Below, in pieces: positions 2,630 to 34,105 of a DNA stretch of 64,000 bases. Position 1 is the stretch's first letter. Every line of letters begins with the position of its first letter. The position numbers and the translations under genes are program-made. The stretch comes from Escherichia coli (GTDB lineage: Bacteria > Pseudomonadota > Gammaproteobacteria > Enterobacterales > Enterobacteriaceae): NCBI RefSeq assembly GCF_013315695.1, contig NZ_CP054353.1; one strand, 5' to 3'. The notes under the pieces were generated by a model. The model did not search any database and was not told the origin of the DNA. It saw only the letters and a list, made by a program, of their open reading frames with translations.

Positions 2630-2921
2630 ATGAATCGTATTGAACATTATCATGACTGGTTACGTGACGCCCACGCAATGGAAAAGCAAGCCGAATCTAT
2701 GCTTTAATCCATGGCCAGCCGTATAGATAATTATCCTGAACTACGCGCTCGTATTGAACAACATCTTAGTGAAACCAAAAACCGATTGTTCAACTGGAAA
2801 CTATTCTTGATCGTAATGACATTTCACGTTCAGTCATTAAAGATTCCATGAGTAAAATGGCTGCGCTTGGGCAGTCAATCGGTGGTATATTTCCTTCTGA
2901 TGAAATAGTCAAAGGCTCTAT
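2630..2921 (+). pseudogene. yciE: yciE remnant: in-frame stop, -1 frameshift and truncation by IS1
   Basis: ATG at 2630 gives MNRIEHYHDWLRDAHAMEKQAESML then TAA at 2705-2707; same frame continues SMASRIDNYPELRARIEQHLSETKN; homologous reading resumes in another frame (VQLETILDRNDISRSVIKDSMSKMAALGQSIGGIFPSDEIVKGS) and runs into the IS1 end at 2922. Confidence 0.7.
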
Positions 2922-2976
2922 GGTGATGCTGCCAACTTACTGATTTAGTGTATGATGGTGTTTTTGAGGTGCTCCA

Positions 2977-3252
2977 GTGGCTTCTGTTTCTATCAGCTGT
3001 CCCTCCTGTTCAGCTACTGACGGGGTGGTGCGTAACGGCAAAAGCACCGCCGGACATCAGCGCTATCTCTGCTCTCACTGCCGTAAAACATGGCAACTGC
3101 AGTTCACTTACACCGCTTCTCAACCCGGTACGCACCAGAAAATCATTGATATGGCCATGAATGGCGTTGGATGCCGGGCAACAGCCCGCATTATGGGCGT
3201 TGGCCTCAACACGATTTTACGTCACTTAAAAAACTCAGGCCGCAGTCGGTAA
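2977..3252 (+). CDS. insA: IS1 InsA
   Basis: 91-aa product [39 protein letters not shown]... Confidence 0.95.
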
Positions 3253-3674
3253 CCTCGCGCATACAGCCGGGCAGTGACGTCATCGTCTGCGCGGAAATGG
3301 ACGAACAGTGGGGCTATGTCGGGGCTAAATCGCGCCAGCGCTGGCTGTTTTACGCGTATGACAGGCTCCGGAAGACGGTTGTTGCGCACGTATTCGGTGA
3401 ACGCACTATGGCGACGCTGGGGCGTCTTATGAGCCTGCTGTCACCCTTTGACGTGGTGATATGGATGACGGATGGCTGGCCGCTGTATGAATCCCGCCTG
3501 AAGGGAAAGCTGCACGTAATCAGCAAGCGATATACGCAGCGAATTGAGCGGCATAACCTGAATCTGAGGCAGCACCTGGCACGGCTGGGACGGAAGTCGC
3601 TGTCGTTCTCAAAATCGGTGGAGCTGCATGACAAAGTCATCGGGCATTATCTGAACATAAAACACTATCAATAA
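3171..3674 (+). CDS. insB: IS1 InsB frame (expressed as InsAB' by -1 frameshifting)
   Basis: 167-aa frame overlapping the insA 3' end; sequence typical of IS1 transposase. Confidence 0.9.
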
Positions 3675-3888
3675 GTTGGAGTCATTACCGTGATAAACAT
3701 CCGGTTTCTTCCACCATCGCACCGGACAGGCGACTATGAGGGGACAACGCCGCGCTCCGTTAACGCGGTAAACCCCGGTGTGTATCGTTTTTGATTATCC
3801 CCGCACACTCGCGCAGAGGAGTCTCCCTGTCGGGCTGCGGTCTCTGTTAATGAGGGAATACAGCGACGATACGGCGCATCAACAAAAC

Positions 3889-8322: not shown

Positions 8323-8325
8323 GTC

Positions 8326-8562
8326 CATAAGAAAGCCCCTCCGGAGAGGGGCTAAAGCCGCGTATCTGTATCATCATGCACATGGTGCCGGGTGCCTCCC
8401 GGTGAGTTCAGCCCGGTGCCACTAAACCCGCGTCATTCTCGTTTTGATAATCAGAGATTATACCGTCACCAGTCGCCCCTCCGCTCAGGGGGATTCACCA
8501 TGCGAAATTTTTTTAACAAATGCCCAGTCTGACAGGCAACTGTCAACTTACTGAATTGTGAG
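8326..8562. repeat. direct repeat copy A (about 237 bp) in the late operon
   Basis: Shares with copy B the blocks AAAGCCCCTCCGGAGAGGGGCT, CATGGTGCCGGGTGCCTCCCGGTGA, GCCCCTCCGC-CAGGGGGATTCACCATGC, TTTTAACAAA and CTGAATTGTGAG. Confidence 0.6.
8335..8352 (-). terminator. hairpin GCCCCTC-CGGA-GAGGGGC with downstream U-rich tract on the minus strand (repeat A)
   Basis: Perfect 7-bp GC stem; in minus orientation followed by TTTCTT. Confidence 0.45.
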
Positions 8563-8812
8563 CAACATAGCATTTAACGGGGAACCTGTTTTCTGCAGTA
8601 AAAAGGCCCACCGGAGCGGATGGGCCTGGAAGGATAGCGGTCATGTGATGCCGGTTTCCCGGTAACTCAGCACCGGTATCTGAGTCAACGTTTTCTCTAC
8701 TGGGTCATTTCCGATACGCCCTGCCTGCTGACAGGCTTTCATCACATCTGAAAATATAGCACCCTGACTGATACTGTAGTACCTAAGGTTCCAGAAACTG
8801 TGATGTATCCGG

Positions 8813-9038
8813 CACAGAAAAGCCCCTCCGGAGAGGGGCTGGAGAGTGGCGCTATGTGCCATTGCATGGTGCCGGGTGCCTCCCGGTGAATTCAGTACCA
8901 GCACCTGAATCCGCGATTATCCCATATACCTACTCGCTGATTGCCCCTCCGCACAGGGGGATTCACCATGCCAGTTTCTTTTAACAAACTCCCCGCAAAC
9001 CAGACAACAGTCAACCGCCTGAATTGTGAGACATTTAA
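8813..9038. repeat. direct repeat copy B
   Basis: Imperfect copy of repeat A about 480 bp away. Confidence 0.6.
8822..8839 (-). terminator. hairpin GCCCCTC-CGGA-GAGGGGC with downstream U-rich tract on the minus strand (repeat B)
   Basis: Same hairpin as copy A; in minus orientation followed by TTTTCT. Confidence 0.45.
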
Positions 9039-9074: not shown

Positions 9075-9151
9075 TGGCGCGTTGTACTGGATTCGAACCA
9101 GTGACCGATTGCTTAGAAGGCAATTGCTCTGTCCGGCTGAGCTAACAACGC
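9075..9151 (-). tRNA. tRNA-Arg (anticodon UCU)
   Basis: Manual fold of the reverse complement: acceptor GCGTTGT/ACAACGC, D-arm GCTC/GAGC, anticodon stem ATTGC/GCAAT with loop CTTCTAA, T-arm ACTGG-TTCGAAT-CCAGT, discriminator G, CCA encoded. Confidence 0.8.
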
Positions 9152-9164
9152 AGGATACAGATAA

Positions 9165-9241
9165 TGGACCGCCTTCGGGGACCCGAACTCCGCGCAACCA
9201 GCTTCGAAAGCTGGCGCTCTTTCCTGATGAGCTAATGGCGG
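9165..9241 (-). tRNA. tRNA-like gene, Arg-type (anticodon UCG by manual fold), possibly degenerate
   Basis: D-arm TAGCTCATCAGGAAAGAGC, anticodon stem CCAGC/GCTGG with loop TTTCGAA, CCA encoded; one mismatch in the acceptor stem and one in the T stem; T-loop TTCGGGT is non-consensus. Confidence 0.5.
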
Positions 9242-9248
9242 TATGTGA

Positions 9249-9324
9249 TGGTGGCCCTTGCTGGATTTGAACCAGCGACCTGGCGATTATGAGTCGCTCG
9301 CTCTCACCACTGAGCTAAAGGGCC
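9249..9324 (-). tRNA. tRNA with CAU anticodon, ileX-like (tRNA-Ile2/lysidine type; could be Met)
   Basis: Acceptor GGCCCTT/AAGGGCC perfect, anticodon loop CTCATAA, T-arm GCTGG-TTCAAAT-CCAGC, discriminator A, CCA encoded; closely resembles E. coli ileX from memory. Confidence 0.8.
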
Positions 9325-13534: not shown

Positions 13535-13690
13535 TTACTCCTCAGGTTCGTAAGCTGTGAAGACAGCGACCTCCGTCTGGCCGGTTCGGAGTCGTACCTC
13601 GCAGAGGTCTTTCCTCGTTACCAGTGCCGTCACTATGACGGTTAAACAGATGACGATCAGGGCGATTAACATCGCCTTTTGCTGCTTCAT
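13535..13690 (-). CDS. hok: Hok/Gef-family type I toxin (HokD-like)
   Basis: 51-aa product MKQQKAMLIALIVICLTVIVTALVTRKDLCEVRLRTGQTEVAVFTAYEPEE; the ORF-track ORF carries a 19-codon in-frame upstream extension. Confidence 0.85.
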   Translation of the reverse strand: MKQQKAMLIALIVICLTVIVTALVTRKDLCEVRLRTGQTEVAVFTAYEPEE

Positions 13691-13927
13691 AGCCTGCTTC
13701 CCCTTGCCTTTCGGCACGTAAGAGGCTAACCTACATTTGTGAGACATAGATTGGGCCTCAGATTAATGTTAAGCGTCTTGCAGGACGCGAAATGTTAACT
13801 GGGGCTTTTCTCTATCTGCCTTTCAGTGTTCATGCCTGAGACAGATAGCCTCAAGCACCCGCAGCCATTCTACTTAACTCACGTCACCTCGCCAATATGA
13901 AATCAATCAGAAAGGTGATCCATAAAA

Positions 13928-20017: not shown

Positions 20018-20588
20018 TTCACCCTCCTGAGGGTTGGTAATTAAGGAGTTCTCCACGGGTCAGGTGGAGTGCGTGCGCCGGACACGGGTGAGCATCCGGC
20101 ACTGACAGCTTACTGAAAGGATATGTCCCTGAAAAGTCAGGGCATAACGCGAAAGCGCACGGCGAAATTGGTCTCTCTGTACGGTGTCGTTAAATTTAGT
20201 TCGACCGTGCGCTTCCGGTTGTGGCACTCCGCGAAATGGCGCGGCGGTAAGTATGGCTGGGGTTTCCTCCATTGCTCCAGAAAATGCACCGGGTTGTCAG
20301 GTTGACCATACGCTTAAGTGACAACCCCGCTACAACGCCCTCTGTTATCAATTTTCTGGTGACATTTGGCGGTATCAGTTTTACTCCGTGACTGCTCTGC
20401 CGCCCTTTTTAAAGTGAATTTTGTGATGCGGTGAATGCGGCTATGCGCACGCGGAACAGTTAAAGCAGTAAGGCGGTATTTTACGGGCGTAACGAGCATC
20501 AACTAACCCGGCGTTAATTGTTAACTGGTTAACGTCACCTGGAGGCACCAGGCACTGCATCACAAAATTCATTGTTGAGGACGCGATA

Positions 20589-23593: not shown

Positions 23594-23842
23594 ATGGCAA
23601 GACTTATTCTGCTCACTGAGTGGGCAAAAGAGGAATTCAGTGAACCGGTCCCTACTCCGAGTACGTTAAGTAAATACGCTAAAGCCGGAATGATATTTCC
23701 TCTCCCCAAAAAAGTTGGAAGACGCTGGCGAGTGGATCCGCAAGCTCGCTTTGTCGGAATGGTAAACAAGCCGGAGGTGATCGCCACAGATCACCCTGCT
23801 TTGAAGAGGATACTGGAAGATGGCGCGCCCGCGAAAATATAA
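23594..23842 (+). CDS. xis: excisionase (Xis-like)
   Basis: 82-aa ORF immediately upstream of and overlapping the integrase gene; contains ...GMIFPLPKKVGRRWRVDP... Confidence 0.6.
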   Translation: MARLILLTEWAKEEFSEPVPTPSTLSKYAKAGMIFPLPKKVGRRWRVDPQARFVGMVNKPEVIATDHPALKRILEDGAPAKI

Positions 23843-24950
23843 AACCGATGTTCCGGGATTATCTCCGTATTTTGACAAAAGAAATAACAAAGTTTACTGG
23901 CGTTACAGGCATCCCATAACAGGCAAAAATCACGGTCTCGGCAGTATTGACCAGAAACTGGCAGAAACTATTGCAGCAGAAGCGAACAGCCGTCTTGCCC
24001 GGCAGCAAATGGAACAAATGCTCAGTCTGCAGGAGAAAATTATTAGTGATACCGGCGGTTCATCAACCGTTACCATTTTTCTGAATAATTACAGAAAAAT
24101 TCAACAGGAAAGATATGAAAACGGCGAGATCAAACTCAACACGCTGAAACAGAAAGCAGCTCCTCTCAGGGTATTTGATGAACGTTTTGGCACCAGACCG
24201 TTAGATGCCATAACCGTAAAAGATGTGGTATCAGTACTGGAAGAGTACAAGGCCAGAGGACATAACAGAATGGGACAAATTTTCAGGAAAGTACTGATCG
24301 ATGTTTTCCGGGAAGCTCAGCAAACGGGCGATGTCCCGCCAGGCTTTAACCCTGCAGAATCGGCAAAAAAACCGCAGGTGCGGATATCAAGACAGCGACT
24401 GACTTTTGATGAGTGGATGATGATTTATAACGCAGCGGAAAAGGATGGTTACTTTTTACAGCGCGGTATGCTGCTGGCACTGATGACAGGCCAGCGCCTT
24501 TCAGATATTTGCAAAATGCAATTTTCGGATATCCGGGATGGTTATCTTCATGTCGAACAGCAAAAAACAGGAACCCGGATTGCCATCCCTCTGGCTCTGC
24601 GTTGCGATAAATTAAATCTCACCCTGGATGATGTGGTGTCATCCTGCCGCGATTGCGTTCTTAGTCCGTGGCTATTGCACCACCATCACGCGAAAGGGAC
24701 AGCTAAGCGCGGCGGGATGGTTAAGCCAGCAACATTAACCGTTGCATTTAAAAAAGCCCGGGATTCTGTGGATTACAACTGGCGTGCTAATGGCACCCCT
24801 CCCTCTTTCCATGAGCAGAGATCTTTATCAGAGCGATTGTTCAGAGAGCAGGGGGTTGATACCAAAATTTTGCTAGGCCATTCGAATCAAAAAATGACCG
24901 ATATTTACAACGACGCACGCGGTAAGGAATGGAAAAAACTGGTCATTTGA
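23820..24950 (+). CDS. int: tyrosine site-specific integrase (lambda Int family)
   Basis: 376-aa product; C-terminal catalytic-domain pattern (...RLSDICKMQFSDI...HEQRSLSERLF...LLGHSNQKMTDIY...) consistent with a tyrosine recombinase. Confidence 0.9.
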   Translation: MARPRKYKTDVPGLSPYFDKRNNKVYWRYRHPITGKNHGLGSIDQKLAETIAAEANSRLARQQMEQMLSLQEKIISDTGGSSTVTIFLNNYRKIQQERYENGEIKLNTLKQKAAPLRVFDERFGTRPLDAITVKDVVSVLEEYKARGHNRMGQIFRKVLIDVFREAQQTGDVPPGFNPAESAKKPQVRISRQRLTFDEWMMIYNAAEKDGYFLQRGMLLALMTGQRLSDICKMQFSDIRDGYLHVEQQKTGTRIAIPLALRCDKLNLTLDDVVSSCRDCVLSPWLLHHHHAKGTAKRGGMVKPATLTVAFKKARDSVDYNWRANGTPPSFHEQRSLSERLFREQGVDTKILLGHSNQKMTDIYNDARGKEWKKLVI

Positions 24951-24984
24951 TGACCAGTTTTGCAGAGGGGTTTTGCAGAGAAAA
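24951..24984. other. prophage-host junction (att region) between int stop and ompW stop
   Basis: 34-bp spacer containing the direct repeat TTTTGCAGAG x2; preceded by palindrome GGTCATTTGATGACC spanning the int stop. Confidence 0.4.
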
Positions 24985-25623
24985 TTAAAAACGATATCCT
25001 GCGGAGAACATAAACACCCACGGATCCAGTCGTACCGAGTCTTTTACGGTAGTAACACCAGATTTGTACTTAGCCGTGGTATCGATATCCATGTACCACA
25101 CTGACATGTTAACCAACCAGTCACGGTTAATCAGATAATCAACCCCCACCTGCCCGGCAGCTCCCCAGGAATCTTTCAGACTGAGATCGGAAAGCCCCGC
25201 CTCTTTGCCATGATCGTTAAATCCATTATCAAAGAAGGTGGTGTAGTTAATACCTGCCCCAACGTAAGGACGGAATTTGCTGCTGGCATCACCAAAATAC
25301 CACTGCGCCATCAGTGTTGGCGGCAGATGATGAACGGTTGCAATATCGCCGGTCGCCCGGGTGCCGATTTTATGGCGGAACGGCGTCGCAGCCAGTAATT
25401 CCACACCAATGTTGTCGGTCGCCATATAAGTAAACGTCAGGCCCAGTTGCGTGTTATTGGTCACGCTGAATCCACCCAGACTTCCTAACGTACCACCAGC
25501 ACCTTCTGTTGGACGTACGGTTGCAGACCCTGCACGCATAAAAAATTCGCCTGCTTCATGCGCATAGGCACTGCCAGAGAGAAGAGTTGTTACTGCCAAA
25601 GCCGCCACTGTTAACTTTTTCAT
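24985..25623 (-). CDS. ompW: outer membrane protein W
   Basis: 212-aa product MKKLTVAALAVTTLLSGSAYA... ending ...FSAGYRF; ORF-track ORF extends upstream to 25701. Confidence 0.95.
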   Translation of the reverse strand: MKKLTVAALAVTTLLSGSAYAHEAGEFFMRAGSATVRPTEGAGGTLGSLGGFSVTNNTQLGLTFTYMATDNIGVELLAATPFRHKIGTRATGDIATVHHLPPTLMAQWYFGDASSKFRPYVGAGINYTTFFDNGFNDHGKEAGLSDLSLKDSWGAAGQVGVDYLINRDWLVNMSVWYMDIDTTAKYKSGVTTVKDSVRLDPWVFMFSAGYRF

Positions 25624-29069: not shown

Positions 29070-29221
29070 ATAAATTAAATATTATTTAAATTCAAAGCAA
29101 TAACGAAAGACAGTCAACATAATCAATAATAAAGGGCGCATTTAAGTACACATTAATCTAAGCGCCCCTTTTTTTTCGCTACGACTTATACTTTCAGTCT
29201 GACATCTGGCTGGAGGTTTCT

Positions 29222-29479
29222 ATGTGCGGACGCTTTTCACAGTCAATGACGCGTGAAGACTATCTCGCCCTTCTCGCAGATGAAGTCGAGCAAGACATTC
29301 CATATGACCCTGAACCGATCGGACGTTTCAACGTTGCGCCAGGCACCAAAGTTCTGCTTCTGAGCGAACGTGACGAGAAACTCCATCTTGATCCAGTTTT
29401 CTGGGGATACGCCCCGGATGGTGGGATAAACCTGGATTTTTACACATACCAAAGACAGATTAGATACTCTACTAATTAG
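29222..29479 (+). pseudogene. 5' fragment of an SRAP/YedK-family gene (about 70 codons), truncated
   Basis: MCGRFSQSMTREDYLALLADEVEQDIPYDPEPIGRFNVAPGTKVLLLSERDEKLHLDPVFWGYAP then unrelated AT-rich sequence and a stop; full-length family members are about 220 aa. Confidence 0.6.
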
Positions 29480-29587
29480 ATTTTAAACTCATGATTAGTA
29501 AGAGAGACTACCATGATTTATTTAACCAAAATGTCATTTTGTGATATTCTGCATAAAAGTTCATTATTCTAGAGATAGAGCATTAAT

Positions 29588-31381
29588 ATGAGTATCGGTT
29601 TGAGCAAAGTCGTTACAAGATATAAAAACTTAAAGTTGAAATCATATGTTTTCGACATTGTCAACGTTATGTTTTTATTGTACTTATTTTGTTTTCTAAA
29701 TCAGTCAATAGTTATCATAGGAAATATTGAACCGCCTAAAGAGTTAATTGGTGCAATATTGAATTTCATCTGGCGTTCATCCCCCATTTTGTTTATTTAT
29801 TTGTTATTTAGAATAATAAACATTCCAATTTTTCTATGTTCTTATTTATCAGGCATCGCAATTATAACATTGATGTTTGTGAACAGTACTAAAATGGCGT
29901 TAACCGGTGAGCCTTTATCATTTAATGACATTGTTTCTGGATTCAATTTGAGTGTCGCAGGAAAATACCTCAACTTATCATCCATTACTTACTCTGTCGC
30001 TATTCTAATTGGCGCAATAATCTCAATCCTACTTAGCAAAAAAACGGTCACAACAAGAAAAAATTATATATCGTTATTTCTTTTAATTATCATTACGATC
30101 CCCTTTTCATTCTACCCCTATATTGGAACCATTTTTAGCCCTAACAATAGGATTTCTGAAATCATAAACTCCAGCGCGAACAACTTAAATATAAAATATA
30201 TTTACTGGAATTGGTCTCAAAATATTGGCGTTAATGGCTTGCCAATGCATATAATACAAACAAGTGTCAGAAAATCTGTACCACATGCAACTGATGCAGA
30301 ACAATTAAGATATTTAGATGAAAAAAGATCTTTAGTATCCACTCATATAAAAAATAAAACCATTATTTATGTTTTATGTGAATCATGTTGGTATGATAAA
30401 AAAAACTTCCGAGAAAATTTCAAACCTGTTATTGATGAAGGTTACAGTGAATTACGGGCCATCTCACCAGTTTACGGTGGAGGTACCGCAAATGCCGAAT
30501 TTGAAATGCTGACAGGACTACCAAGTAATTCAGATAAAATATCAGGAATCATCTATCAAGAATATTCAGATGCATTCAAACCAAAAGTTGACGCATTACC
30601 TAATGCCCTGAAAAACAAAGGCTATATTACTTTCGCAGCACATAATTACCAAGCAGACTTTTGGTATAGGAATAAAATTTACCCTAAATTTGGATTTGAT
30701 AGATTTGATAGCATTATTAATATGGGAGATTTACCACCAGAGTATAGCAGTATTAAAAAACCATGGCAGTGGCAACCTGATGACTACCTGCTTTACAATG
30801 CAGCATTAAAAGCCATCCAAAATGCAGGAAACAAAGATATTTTTGTACATTTGATCACTATGTCAACTCATGGTCCTTATCAACACATTAATGATTATGG
30901 TGAAGGTGTTTATACCTATGAGATTAATGAGGCAGTCAAAAGATTCGTTCAATTTTCACAGCAAGTAGAAAAAATAGATCCAAATGCTGTAATCGTCTTT
31001 TACGGTGACCATAAACCACCACTAAATAAATATTTCGTCGAAAATGGGGTGCTACCAAGTAATATTTTCAACAAAATCGGAGAAGAAAAAGATGAAGATT
31101 TCGTCTTTAAAATGAGCACAACCCCACTCGATTTTGGTGATGTTCCTGTGCTTATTAAATCAAATGATAAAGACGCCATTAAAAAATTCATAACCGACGC
31201 CAATGGAAAACCTTTTTTCTGTGTATCTTCATTAGTTGATAAACATTTCATTCAATCTGGATTGGTATCATTTAATCACAACGCAAAGCATGTCTGTGAA
31301 AACAGTGATAACTTTAATTATGATAAGTTAATTAACATGACCCCGTCGTGGATTTATTCAATGTCATTATTTCACGATTAG
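29588..31381 (+). CDS. sulfatase-superfamily membrane protein (LTA-synthase / phosphoethanolamine-transferase-like), AT-rich
   Basis: 597-aa product; N-terminal multi-TM region, C-terminal domain with YVLCESCW and STHGPYQH motifs; codon usage strongly AT-biased. Confidence 0.6.
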   Translation: MSIGLSKVVTRYKNLKLKSYVFDIVNVMFLLYLFCFLNQSIVIIGNIEPPKELIGAILNFIWRSSPILFIYLLFRIINIPIFLCSYLSGIAIITLMFVNSTKMALTGEPLSFNDIVSGFNLSVAGKYLNLSSITYSVAILIGAIISILLSKKTVTTRKNYISLFLLIIITIPFSFYPYIGTIFSPNNRISEIINSSANNLNIKYIYWNWSQNIGVNGLPMHIIQTSVRKSVPHATDAEQLRYLDEKRSLVSTHIKNKTIIYVLCESCWYDKKNFRENFKPVIDEGYSELRAISPVYGGGTANAEFEMLTGLPSNSDKISGIIYQEYSDAFKPKVDALPNALKNKGYITFAAHNYQADFWYRNKIYPKFGFDRFDSIINMGDLPPEYSSIKKPWQWQPDDYLLYNAALKAIQNAGNKDIFVHLITMSTHGPYQHINDYGEGVYTYEINEAVKRFVQFSQQVEKIDPNAVIVFYGDHKPPLNKYFVENGVLPSNIFNKIGEEKDEDFVFKMSTTPLDFGDVPVLIKSNDKDAIKKFITDANGKPFFCVSSLVDKHFIQSGLVSFNHNAKHVCENSDNFNYDKLINMTPSWIYSMSLFHD

Positions 31382-31731
31382 TATCTAGAAAATAATTGTA
31401 ATAAATCATCATTAATTATGTAGACGCCTAAAATTAGGCATCTACATTTTATTAGAAAAGAGGTTGTCCTGACTAGGTTGTGGAAATGTGCATCGCATAA
31501 ATCAAGGCTATAGAGCATGAAAGTGCGTTCTTCCCCCTCTACCATTGATAAATATTTAAAAGTGCTCACGCTGGATTCGATCCAGGCATTAGCATCTTTG
31601 AGTGAGAATTCCCAGTTAACTTTGCTCAACCCCTGAACAAATCGCTGTGTAGTGACGGTCTTCCGGCCATTCGGCTCTTGCTGTATCGAAGAATACCAGG
31701 CTATTTCAATATCGCTGCGTCGTGGCATCAT
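31378..31731 (-). CDS. hypothetical protein (117 aa), possibly a gene fragment
   Basis: ATG pair with GAGGG upstream; divergent from the dinI-like gene; ORF-track ORF extends to 31977. Confidence 0.35.
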   Translation of the reverse strand: MMPRRSDIEIAWYSSIQQEPNGRKTVTTQRFVQGLSKVNWEFSLKDANAWIESSVSTFKYLSMVEGEERTFMLYSLDLCDAHFHNLVRTTSFLIKCRCLILGVYIINDDLLQLFSRY

Positions 31732-31771
31732 TACGCCCTCTCTTGAATACCGGATAAAAACACAGTATAAA

Positions 31772-31791
31772 TACTGTATATACACCCAGTA
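31772..31791. promoter_or_regulatory. LexA (SOS) box upstream of the dinI-like gene
   Basis: TACTGTATATACACCCAGTA: CTGT-N8-CCAG, one mismatch from the CTGT-N8-ACAG core; overlapping palindrome ACAGTATAAATACTGT just upstream. Confidence 0.6.
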
Positions 31792-31806
31792 AAGAGGCAA
31801 TGAGCA

Positions 31807-32034
31807 ATGTTCGTGGAACTCGTTTATGGCAAAAGGAATTTTGATGGACTGCCCGGTGCAAAAGATATCATTCTGGGCGAGTTGACCAAGAGGGTTCACC
31901 GGATTTTCCCCGGCGCTGATGTCCGGGTTAAACCGATGATGACATTGCCGGCGATCAACACTGACGCCAACAAGCATGAGAATGAACAGATAAGCCGTAC
32001 TGTTCAGGAAATGTTTGAAGAGACTGATATGTAG
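31807..32034 (+). CDS. DinI-like protein
   Basis: 75-aa product MFVELVYGKRNFDGLPGAKDIILGELTKRVHRIFPGADVRVKPMMTLPAINTDANKHENEQISRTVQEMFEETDM; AGAGG RBS; LexA box upstream. Confidence 0.7.
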   Translation: MFVELVYGKRNFDGLPGAKDIILGELTKRVHRIFPGADVRVKPMMTLPAINTDANKHENEQISRTVQEMFEETDM

Positions 32035-32122
32035 CTGTTTTCAGATTAAACGCCTTGAACCGTCACACTGATTAAGTACAATCCGGCGTGGTTGCGGCTT
32101 CCAGATTATAAGAATGATTCCC

Positions 32123-32550
32123 TTACTCACTTTTCAGCGCATTCACTTCTTCTCGTAATTCACTGAGTTCGTTCATTAGTACCAGAATCGCTTCATGATG
32201 CAACGCTGCCGCAACGCCGTAAGTATCTGGAGAGAGTACTCCTTCCACCATAGTTCCATCAGGAAGTTGACGATCACCTCCCTCAGTTACTGCCTGGGGG
32301 AAGATTTTCTTAACATCCTGCGCGATAAACCCAATCCCCCATTGTCCGGTATCTTTTCGCGTCCAGGAACAACCTTTTAGCATTTCCATCTTACTGAGCG
32401 GGTCTCCAATTCTGGACACTCCATCTTTCAGGCGGCCATCTGAATTCGGAACCCATGCTCCAGGCGCTACAGCGTTACCAGTTGATTTCATAAAGCTCCA
32501 TGTGGTTCCTGAGCTTGCGTTTGCTACCTGAATATTCCCTGATAAAGAAC
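32123..32550 (-). pseudogene. C-terminal fragment of a phage tail-fibre protein (intramolecular chaperone-type domain), 5' end removed by IS insertion
   Basis: ...GQWGIGFIAQDVKKIFPQAVTEGGDRQLPDGTMVEGVLSPDTYGVAAALHHEAILVLMNELSELREEVNALKSE; the frame runs upstream into the IS inverted repeat. Confidence 0.6.
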
Positions 32551-33473
<923 letters not shown>

Positions 33474-33602
33474 GTATCGGTAGAAAAAAGAAACTTTACC
33501 AGCCTGACTGATCCTTGCGTTCAGCCCATGAGAATCTGAAATGGTTTCGATATCATCTCGTTTCTTGCCCAGGGACTTCCTGAGCTTTGTGTCGGTAATC
33601 AT
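33474..33602 (-). pseudogene. N-terminal fragment (43 codons) of a P4-type integrase, cut by the IS element
   Basis: [43 protein letters not shown] resembles the DUF4102-type N-terminus of P4-family integrases; frame runs into the IS right end. Confidence 0.5.
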
Positions 33603-34105
33603 TGAATGTGTACACATCTGGCTTGCGAGTACGCAAAAGTGTACACAAAACTCGTTGCTCAAAGATACCCGCAATGTAACACTTGTACTCGAAGTGTGAT
33701 GGCTTAGGGGCTGAAAGGCAGATGGCGTAAGGGTTCAACGTAACAGAACGTTTTTATGCGAAATTCTTCGAAATGGTCTGAATGACATTTTAAGAAAGTG
33801 TTCTGAATAGAAATTCAATATTTAAGGGCACGGTTTTTGCAACCGTGTTCTTGTTTGGCCTTTCCTTATAGGTCGGTCAGTGCATTCACCACCACAAGCA
33901 GATAATAACTTTATCTGTATTTCTTTATATGATGTGAACATATTCAGGAAAATGCCCTTTCCTGACGCAGAGTTGCTCACTCAAAACCTTTGATTACTGC
34001 GGATAAAGTCATCTACTATTGTTTAACACATTCACGCGCTGCATGTATGTTCAGAAAATGTGCACGTTGAGATAATTAAACAAAATTGTGGTTACAGAGG
34101 TATCA

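Follow-up and report, generated by a model that had tools for sequence, protein, structure and literature searches.

A PPompW-type prophage remnant joined to ompW in Escherichia coli, with its attachment core inside the gene and tandem repeats beside int

How is a lambdoid prophage joined to ompW, and where in the junction does phage DNA give way to host DNA? This question is raised by a 64,000-nucleotide stretch of Escherichia coli DNA (hereafter the window), in which the convergent genes int and ompW nearly touch. Reading of the coordinates confirmed that only 34 bp (24951-24984) separate the two stop codons, as a first-pass annotation had indicated. The genes concerned are the following.

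23594-23842, plus strand: xis, an excisionase of 82 aa that overlaps the start of int (Pfam PF07825 Exc, E=1.3e-7).
23820-24950, plus strand: int, a lambda-family tyrosine integrase of 376 aa, apparently intact.
24948-24950, plus strand: the int stop codon, TGA.
24985-24987, minus strand: the ompW stop codon, TAA (reverse complement).
24985-25623, minus strand: ompW, a chimeric open reading frame of 212 aa (Pfam OmpW, E=1.6e-80, match across the full length).

The integrase possesses an N-terminal arm-DNA-binding domain (Pfam PF09003, residues 2-71, E=7.1e-22) and a catalytic domain (Pfam PF00589), and it can be aligned over its full length with the lambda Int structures 5J0N and 1Z1B (E about 1e-55). 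Alignment to 5J0N indicates that the catalytic residues R-K-H-R-H-Y are all conserved (GQR, QxKTG, FHExR, LLGH and the tyrosine of an xxIY/QY motif). The protein is 100% identical to many integrases of IMG/VR prophages; most of the corresponding contigs end precisely with the stop codon of int and say nothing about att, which left about ten informative ones. As for xis, its homologues in matching RefSeq genomes are labelled excisionase.

To locate the crossover, the 3' end of ompW was aligned with prophage-free genomes, a check that the first-pass annotation had itself suggested, and with the two junctions of an intact lysogen, strain 700481. This four-way alignment placed the core inside ompW.

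25076-25103, unstranded: 28-bp identity core GTGGTATCGATATCCATGTACCACACTG, common to the empty site and both prophage junctions.
24983-25103, unstranded: 121-bp imperfect att duplication, to which the repeat_region of GenBank LC567822 maps.

The 28-bp block, which corresponds to ompW codons 174-183, is identical in the empty site of K-12 and in both junctions of strain 700481. On the int side, the junction of this lysogen is identical to that of the window; on the yciE side, the native 3' end of ompW is followed by the 28-bp core and then by phage DNA. Some IMG/VR contigs display int, the repeats, the ompW' segment, the core and the P arm contiguously, which is the attP arrangement. From this comparison, strand exchange must have occurred within 25076-25103. 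An inverted repeat, GTGGTA...TACCAC, can be read directly in the core and could provide candidate core-type Int sites. The prophage is indeed joined to the 3' end of ompW, as first proposed, but the core itself lies about 100 bp further in, inside the gene. Two strains were set aside in the course of this comparison. RM12522-C8 (O145), tried as an intact lysogen, has a rearranged ompW prophage joined to a distant part of the chromosome, and 700481 was used instead; KCJ3K291, in which homology starts exactly at the core, carries an unrelated IS5 insertion in ompW and was dropped as evidence.

The 47-bp interval 24941-24987 is very probably the outermost part of the P' arm, the one next to the integrase, in a lambda-type junction (BOP' or attL in lambda terms). 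Going from int to ompW, one meets a hairpin, tandem TTTTGCAGA units, a 91-nt phage copy of the ompW 3' end and the 28-bp core. The repeat units are found at two positions in the spacer.

24957-24967, plus strand: repeat unit 1, GTTTTGCAGAG, putative P' arm-type Int-binding site.
24970-24980, plus strand: repeat unit 2, GTTTTGCAGAG, putative arm-type Int-binding site.

The tandem repeat already noticed in the spacer is thus made of two exact 11-mers separated by a 2-bp gap. No other exact 11-mer occurs twice in direct orientation at such close spacing in the 64-kb window, and block shuffles yield 0.05 such pairs on average. It is too short to be reported by Tandem Repeats Finder or by a general repeat search, and direct counting with shuffles was used. 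Among lysogens the copy number varies from two to four, with usually three units, four in one relative and two in the window. The 9-nt sequence TTTTGCAGA is invariant in every copy across six spacer variants, and substitutions affect only flanking or spacer bases. In relatives, the opposite (P) arm has an extra copy of TTTTGCAGA at a distance of about 120 bp from the core. Its position is shared by two P arms that have diverged to roughly 75% identity past the core and whose similarity stops just after this copy; the calculated chance of such a match within 1.1 kb is about 0.02. Relatives also show a match to the IHF consensus between the core and this P-arm copy; a search for IHF sites in the P' arm gave no convincing site, and a literature search for the repeat sequence returned unrelated primers only.

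Since the integrase combines a lambda arm-binding domain with all the catalytic residues, since TTTTGCAGA is invariant and since its P-arm copy is conserved, the TTTTGCAGA repeats are probably arm-type sites, counterparts of lambda P'1-P'3 to which Int would bind by its N-terminal domain. On the other hand, one could assume that they are functionless products of slippage in an AT-rich spacer and that arm-type sites, if any, are to be found elsewhere. Such a process would be in line with the variation from 2 to 4 copies among otherwise near-identical junctions, and with the window being down one unit in a prophage that has no further need to recombine. It would not be expected, however, to spare a 9-nt core in all six variants when the bases next to it and the nearby ompW' segment do change, nor to put a matching copy at a conserved position, on the outer edge of the opposite arm, in each of two phages that have diverged. 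The layout moreover mirrors that of lambda attP, where P'1-P'3 adjoin the int stop, and we regard slippage as an unlikely origin for the repeats. Another hypothesis, which we find quite improbable, is that the repeats bind Xis, Fis or a host protein, or act as RNA in the 3' UTR of ompW. A copy in the opposite arm better suits a heterobivalent Int bridging the two arms, lambda-type Xis sites sit in the P arm, far from int, and not in the int-proximal arm, and no Rfam family matches within the interval; these points outweigh, in our opinion, the fact that lambda Xis also binds tandem direct repeats and that the units would be transcribed within the ompW 3' UTR, ahead of the hairpin. Arm-type Int sites thus remain the reading that we favour.

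The second element of this region is the hairpin.

24935-24961, unstranded: hairpin whose 12-bp arms pair perfectly around a 3-nt loop, into which part of the int stop codon falls (inverted-repeat search, 100% complementary).

The palindrome described earlier across the int stop is real, but its arms measure 12 bp and not 6: AAAACTGGTCAT at 24935-24946 and ATGACCAGTTTT at 24950-24961. Perfect hairpins of such size occur at four loci in the 64-kb window, against 0.05 expected from shuffles. Both the tandem repeat and the hairpin are more than chance. The hairpin is kept in all the lysogens aligned. It is bordered by an A-run and, at the opposite flank, by a T-run, which would read as U6 in the ompW transcript and as U4 in the int transcript. 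The minus-strand RNA is predicted to fold with -15.8 kcal/mol (z=-3.6) and displays the hairpin followed by UUUUUU. Only 4 of the 12 pairs of the stem are G-C. A consensus promoter/terminator scan did not call the hairpin, because its U-run can pair with the upstream A-run. Judging from these features, it is reasonably likely that the hairpin is a bidirectional intrinsic terminator shared by the convergent int and ompW. A role in sib-like retroregulation was considered and rejected: in lambda, att lies between sib and int and integration parts the two, whereas the present hairpin stays attached to int in both states.

If the core lies inside ompW, what is the origin of the sequence comprised between the core and the ompW stop codon? 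The gene can be divided into two parts on either side of the core.

24985-25075, minus strand: substitute ompW 3' end, phage-borne (third base of codon 183, codons 184-212 and stop).
25104-25623, minus strand: host-derived ompW, from codon 1 to codon 173 plus the start of the core, with about 99% identity to K-12.

Relative to K-12, 26 of the 91 nt of the first part differ (29%) versus 6 of the 520 upstream of the core. The chimeric OmpW carries seven amino-acid changes, all of them in residues 185-194, and its last strand, VRLDPWVFMFSAGYRF, is unchanged. It had been suspected that the phage may supply the last codons of ompW and the sequence downstream; it does supply both, and more than was guessed, namely 29 codons plus the stop. 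On integration, the terminal 119 bp of the native ompW are carried away to the opposite prophage end, beside yciE. The phage copy is fused in frame, so that the lysogen should make a full-length chimeric OmpW differing only at residues 185-194. A crossover inside the coding sequence, a substitute 3' end and a restored frame, all three present here, are the attributes of gene-3'-end-replacing integration of the icd/e14 type.

A 2025 survey of OmpW lists TAKYKSGVTTVKDSVRL, an exact match to the sequence of the chimera, as hypervariable-region type HVR1_1. It credits the hypervariable regions to local (mosaic) recombination and leaves phage unmentioned. On this basis, one would also wonder if the divergent 3' end could be a host allele acquired by homologous recombination, the prophage being merely located downstream. 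This is very unlikely in view of four observations. The divergence ends exactly at the att core. The segment is physically joined to the phage P arm in the attP-type contigs. In a sample of 60 evenly spaced genomes, int accompanies the phage-type 3' end in 20 cases out of 20, and int is absent in the 39 genomes out of 39 with a native-type end. Finally, the native 3' end survives as a displaced fragment adjoining yciE, at the far junction of the intact lysogen 700481.

The position of the core inside ompW is also in agreement with the published limits of the attachment site. The span 24983-25103 is that of the homology among the int-side junction, the empty site and the far junction, with 25076-25103 as its sole perfect block, and genomes with an empty site lose homology to the window at 24983, not within the spacer. 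The att of PPompW prophages has been described as a 121-bp sequence, 81% identical to E. coli ompW (Nakamura et al. 2021, PLoS Pathog, PMC8112680); the same study reports the excision, the circularisation and the attP sequence of intact PPompW phages. The interval 24941-24987, initially singled out as the att region, shares 5 bp only with this 121-bp att, and the idea that the spacer with its TTTTGCAGAG repeat forms the att region had to be abandoned in favour of the core at 25076-25103. As far as the alignments tell, the spacer and the hairpin belong to the phage arm and lie beyond the region of crossover. The reading in which the core lies in the 34-bp spacer, TTTTGCAGAG being the recombination core or its duplication, the palindrome an Int core-binding site and ompW essentially all host DNA, is on the four-way junction alignment already refuted: the spacer is the non-coding DNA nearest to int and its direct repeat and palindrome superficially resemble att cores, yet TTTTGCAGAG is absent from empty sites that still align across 24983-25103, the 29% divergence of the ompW 3' end from the host allele stops exactly at the 28-bp block, the far junction of the intact lysogen duplicates this block and the ompW 3' end but not the spacer, and the published and annotated att is 24983-25103. 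For annotation purposes, the prophage boundary belongs at the 28-bp core inside ompW and not at the ompW stop codon.

What could be the consequence of this exchange for OmpW? Residues 185-194 form the turn between the last two strands of the barrel, reported as extracellular; we place them there according to the known topology of OmpW, the solved-structure homologues 2F1T and 2MHL and a general statement of the survey. A single-sequence AlphaFold model of the chimera reached a pLDDT of 28 and was discarded. At least four phage-borne versions of the last OmpW hairpin exist (KYKSGVTTVK, KYKSDGRKLAKGSYSDN, SYKFNGTPVK and SYKLNGAPVK), and none of them alters the final beta-strand. They would account for the only hypervariable region so far reported in the OmpW of E. 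coli. The reported "hypervariable region" alleles of OmpW match phage attachment-site cassettes, which changes the way the variation seen in population surveys is to be read, ompW being a host-phage chimera in about a third of E. coli genomes. A tempting but rather doubtful hypothesis would be that integration of PPompW represents an adaptive lysogenic conversion, in which a surface loop of OmpW is swapped as a cassette. If so, the swap would alter how phages, colicins, conjugative TraN or antibodies recognise OmpW in about one third of E. coli, and the IS1 deletion described below would have fixed it permanently in this strain. Any phenotypic effect of the altered loop is something that we only infer. 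The contacts described for colicin S4 and TraN-alpha are in loop 3 (D116/H117/E120 and N142), outside the swapped region, and no known ligand is tied in the literature to residues 185-194.

We then come to the other end of the prophage.

2630-2921, plus strand: yciE pseudogene, with a frameshift, an internal stop and a 3' end lost to an IS1-associated deletion.
2922-3689, plus strand: IS1, 768 bp, at the deletion junction, bounded by the truncated yciE and by the lysis region of the prophage (IS1A in the annotation of MSB1_4I).
3690-24982, unstranded: PPompW-type lambdoid remnant, about 21.4 kb if the substitute 3' end of ompW (24985-25075) is included.

According to its open reading frames and to the annotation of E. 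coli MSB1_4I, in which the locus is identical, the remnant contains lysis genes, Q, tRNAs, replication and immunity genes, dicB/DicF, exo, xis and int. Compared with the roughly 50-kb prophage of strain 700481, it is devoid of all head and tail genes, of the P arm and of the far att. Inspection of the sequence revealed no 9-bp target duplication at the IS1 junction, and the same junction is found in 3 E. coli genomes. In the RefSeq annotation of the identical locus, yciE is described as 'frameshifted; internal stop; missing C-terminus'. The statement that the partner att is gone proved right: the 28-bp core is single in the window, no second copy being present in the 64 kb, IS1 junction included, and both the native ompW 3' fragment and the P arm are absent. 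The expectation that the element cannot excise by normal Int/Xis recombination holds as well, as judged from the sequence: the second substrate is missing, the far prophage end being replaced by the IS1 deletion junction, and excision should therefore be impossible. Very probably, an IS1-associated deletion took away the 3' end of yciE together with the displaced ompW fragment, the partner att and its P arm, and every head and tail gene. It would have left a 21.4-kb remnant unable to excise and made the chimeric ompW permanent. Such a deletion would explain both the immobility of the remnant and the truncation of yciE in this strain.

Altogether, sequence comparison shows where the core lies, that the 3' end of ompW came from the phage, that the partner is missing and that IS1 forms the other junction. 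It is very probable that we are dealing with a lambdoid junction of the PPompW family in which the spacer is the outer P' arm, the core is inside ompW and the remnant has been grounded by an IS1 deletion. The general phenomena, namely gene-internal integration with a substitute 3' end, arm-type sites and grounded prophages, belong to established biology, and the ompW site itself is published.

The closest relatives are the PPompW prophages of STEC and EPEC (PMC8112680; GenBank LC567818-LC567841), which have the same integrase, the same ompW site, the 121-bp att and the xis-int-exo organisation. Over the 811 bp that cover the 3' end of int and att, the window is 98.7% identical in nucleotides to 11 PPompW GenBank records. 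The integrase falls within the definition given in PMC8112680 (>90% identity and coverage with that of the O145:H28 PPompW). In place of a 121-bp att at both ends, only the int-side copy is present, the second one being absent from the window; the element is a truncated PPompW derivative, not a complete member. It differs from the PPompW prophages by two spacer repeats rather than three, and by being a 21.4-kb remnant without the far att and the structural genes. The 21-bp 'attB-in-PP_1', a secondary attB of the O145 PPompWs, is also absent from the window. PPompW-type prophages are present in about 32% of complete E. coli genomes, with roughly 1,714 lysogens among 5,426. Arm-type sites, the terminator and the amino-acid changes of OmpW are left undiscussed in PMC8112680.

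A parallel can be drawn with the attP and attL of lambda. The integrase belongs to the same family, with an arm-binding domain, conserved catalytic residues and an xis-int overlap; tandem direct repeats lie beside the int stop, with a further copy at the outer end of the other arm, and this opposite arm, as known from relatives, is AT-rich and holds a match to the IHF consensus. On the other hand, the repeat TTTTGCAGA is unlike the lambda arm-site consensus, and the opposite arm has yielded one copy only, versus two in lambda. The spacer repeats are 106-130 bp from the core, further than in lambda, because a 91-nt segment of ompW coding sequence is embedded in the arm. Finally, attB is here within a gene, whereas that of lambda lies between gal and bio.

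The element e14 and phage 21 integrate into icd and carry a substitute 3' end for this gene. As in these systems, the crossover takes place in a coding sequence, a diverged 3' duplicate restores the frame and the native fragment is found at the other junction. The differences are that the target is an outer-membrane beta-barrel, that the changes are limited to residues 185-194 and that at least four phage-borne versions exist. The remnant can also be compared with the grounded cryptic prophages DLP12, Qin and Rac derivatives, which are likewise lambdoid remnants with lysis, Q, immunity and dicB/DicF-type genes, immobile through the loss of one recombination partner. Unlike them, however, it has kept int, xis and one junction intact, and what was lost can be attributed to a single identifiable IS1-associated deletion.

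The window runs through trpBA, yciG, yciF, yciE', IS1 and a prophage remnant ending exo-xis-int to ompW-yciC-yciB-yciA-tonB, and MSB1_4I, an E. coli strain whose locus is identical, is annotated in this order too. In prophage-free K-12-type genomes, ompW directly follows yciE. Homology between the window and such empty sites ends at 24983, two bases beyond the ompW stop codon. The ompW gene is ~99% identical to that of K-12 up to 25103 (6 differences in 520 nt), and its last 91 nt carry 26 differences. In strain 700481, an intact lysogen, the yciE-side junction passes from the native ompW 3' end through GTGGTATCGATATCCATGTACCACACTG into phage DNA. Its int-side junction passes from phage DNA through the same 28 bp into the remaining ompW and matches the window exactly. 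The displaced native piece is labelled in RefSeq as a 126-bp OmpW pseudogene fragment. On the basis of these empty-site and intact-lysogen comparisons, we place the crossover core at 25076-25103, in ompW codons 174-183, and read 24985-25075 as phage DNA replacing the 3' end of the gene. The prophage is thus indeed joined to ompW, as the first-pass annotation had proposed, but the attachment site that it located in the 34-bp int-ompW spacer lies instead inside ompW and differs in nature as well as in position. Direct reading of the 28-bp block also reveals a weakly significant inverted repeat, GTGGTA...TACCAC, with a 12-bp spacing, which fits two candidate core-type half-sites flanking a central overlap region.

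The ompW integration site itself was already known (PMC8112680), and the remnant is a truncated member, at the published site, of the lambda-like prophage group PPompW. Nakamura et al. determined attP by PCR on excised circles (PMC8112680), and in their GenBank records the annotated repeat_region corresponds to 24983-25103 of the window. Among complete E. coli genomes, int adjoins ompW in 1,714 of 5,426. As seen 3' of int in the IMG/VR contigs L029 and L032, some att variants have ...CCAGACCG... where the core has ...CCACACTG...; since the CCAGACCG form matches another ompW allele, present in E138, GN04204 and 21367, this suggests that att variation in the phages follows the ompW alleles of their hosts.

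The other end of the element has been lost. The features at this end and those kept in the remnant are as follows.

From 2630, cut at 2921 by IS1: frameshifted yciE pseudogene, also with an internal stop
2922-3689: IS1, with the yciE pseudogene to its left and the prophage lysis region to its right
8323-8532 and 8810-9000: STnc100-family sRNA, two copies
9075-9324: tRNA cluster (ARAGORN: Arg-tct, Arg-tcg and a CAT-anticodon tRNA called Met, versus Ile in the RefSeq annotation)
13685-13860: sok/hokD toxin-antitoxin RNA
20354-20405: DicF antisense RNA, adjoining dicB

The IS1 copy has no 9-bp target duplication, which identifies its site as a deletion junction; MSB1_4I is one of three complete E. 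coli genomes that have an identical yciE-IS1-prophage junction. Unlike the 700481 prophage (~50 kb), the remnant has no head, tail or terminase genes and no far att. Within the window, the 28-bp core occurs once, and neither the native ompW 3' fragment nor the conserved sequence of the P arm (the arm opposite int) is present, in line with the earlier claim that the partner att is gone. Int and Xis look intact; as they have no second substrate within the 64-kb window, normal excision is predicted to be impossible, as had also been proposed.

The window also carries an insertion of ~4.7 kb that strain 20AR0300 lacks.

About 29200-33900: insertion between yciI and kch, which also holds a SRAP-domain fragment and a Peptidase_S74 fragment
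29588-31381: sulfatase-family ORF, 597 aa
32587-33465: IS3-family transposase
32619-32741: isrC sRNA match

The spacer between int and ompW is bounded by two stop codons.

24948-24950: int stop TGA, end of the int ORF
24985-24987, minus strand: ompW stop codon

These ORF ends leave the 34 bp first described, which are phage arm DNA between int and the embedded substitute 3' end, ompW'. The tandem repeat noted there is confirmed as two exact copies of GTTTTGCAGAG (24957-24967 and 24970-24980). No other exact 11-mer direct repeat with close spacing occurs in the 64-kb window (shuffle mean 0.05), nor does any further copy of the motif. The repeat layout at ompW matches that of lambda, which has three tandem arm-type sites, P'1-P'3, on the stretch from the core to the int stop and further sites in the other arm. 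By sequence comparison, Int is a true member of the lambda family: it contains both an arm-DNA-binding domain (PF09003, E=7e-22) and a catalytic domain, aligns to lambda Int structures (E ~1e-55) with the R-K-H-R-H-Y residues kept, and its start is overlapped by the excisionase gene. The 9-mer TTTTGCAGA is constant across six spacer variants, all substitutions falling in flanking or spacer bases, while the adjacent ompW' segment varies considerably. In reconstructed attP, a fourth repeat copy lies ~120 bp past the core in the opposite arm, with an IHF-consensus match in between; two P arms that have diverged (to ~75% identity past the core) both have this copy at the same place, and their similarity stops immediately after it. 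Given the Int family, the lambda-like layout, the invariant 9-mer, the opposite-arm copy and the IHF-consensus match, the repeats are probably arm-type Int sites.

Three tandem units are found in most relatives, two in the window and in its closest relative, and four in strain E138 (245-295 of its record, L094). Among lysogens the number ranges from 2 to 4 and is usually 3 (records L005, L007, L075, L086 and L094), and the two-copy form has matches of at least 99% identity in ~41 of the 1,715 records of lysogens.

The palindrome reported across the int stop is present but larger than claimed: its 12-bp arms, AAAACTGGTCAT and ATGACCAGTTTT (24935-24946 and 24950-24961), are perfectly complementary around a 3-nt loop overlapping the stop codon. 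Perfect hairpins of this size occur at four loci in the window, against 0.05 expected. The ompW-strand 3' UTR forms an 11-12-bp stem with UUUUUU directly after it (-15.8 kcal/mol, z=-3.6), and on the int strand UUUU follows the same 24935-24961 stem. Downstream of native ompW there is a hairpin whose only U-run is on the yciE strand; the ompW strand lacks one. The simplest reading is a predicted bidirectional terminator between int and ompW, which are convergent and 34 bp apart, although the stem is only one-third G-C, which counts against it, and a consensus terminator scan did not call this hairpin. It is thus plausible that the ompW terminator comes from the phage, as was also suggested at first.

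The last ompW codons are of phage origin, as first suspected, in keeping with the divergence of 24985-25075 (26 differences in 91 nt). At 212 aa the chimeric ORF is full-length, and its Pfam OmpW match covers the whole of it. Past the core it carries seven replacements relative to native OmpW (N185K, L188S, G190V, A191T, Q192T, Q193V and H194K) and ten more codons with synonymous differences only; the final strand, DSVRLDPWVFMFSAGYRF, is unaltered. Other phage variants bear different forms of the same short segment (around 185-194), one of them five residues longer, and all retain VRLDPWVFMFSAGYRF. The structures 2F1T and 2MHL contain the native version; going by their known topology, in which the barrel has eight strands and both termini are periplasmic, the strand 7-8 turn faces outward. 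The mapped contacts of colicin S4 and TraN-alpha lie on a different loop. In E. coli KCJ3K291 (L095, 1210-3048), an IS5-family element near the phage att core splits ompW independently of any prophage.

A 2025 survey of mosaic evolution in outer-membrane proteins describes TANYKLGGAQQH... and TAKYKSGVTTVK... as types of a single OmpW "hypervariable region", gives local recombination as the source of such regions and never mentions prophages (PMC12175518). Its OmpW 'HVR1' types correspond to the native sequence and to the att cassettes that the phages carry (24985-25075; residues 185-194). The TAKYKSGVTTVK-type segment extends as far as the att core and, in attP-type contigs, directly adjoins the phage arm; in an evenly spaced sample, it occurs together with int in 20 of 20 genomes and is absent from all 39 without int. 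These data indicate that at least this second type is a PPompW cassette.

What is new here, and of modest reach, is the annotation of predicted arm sites and a predicted terminator, and the proposed link to alleles of the OmpW hypervariable region. The ompW junction follows the familiar lambda plan, and its "substitute 3' end" strategy is the equally familiar one of e14 and phage 21 in icd.
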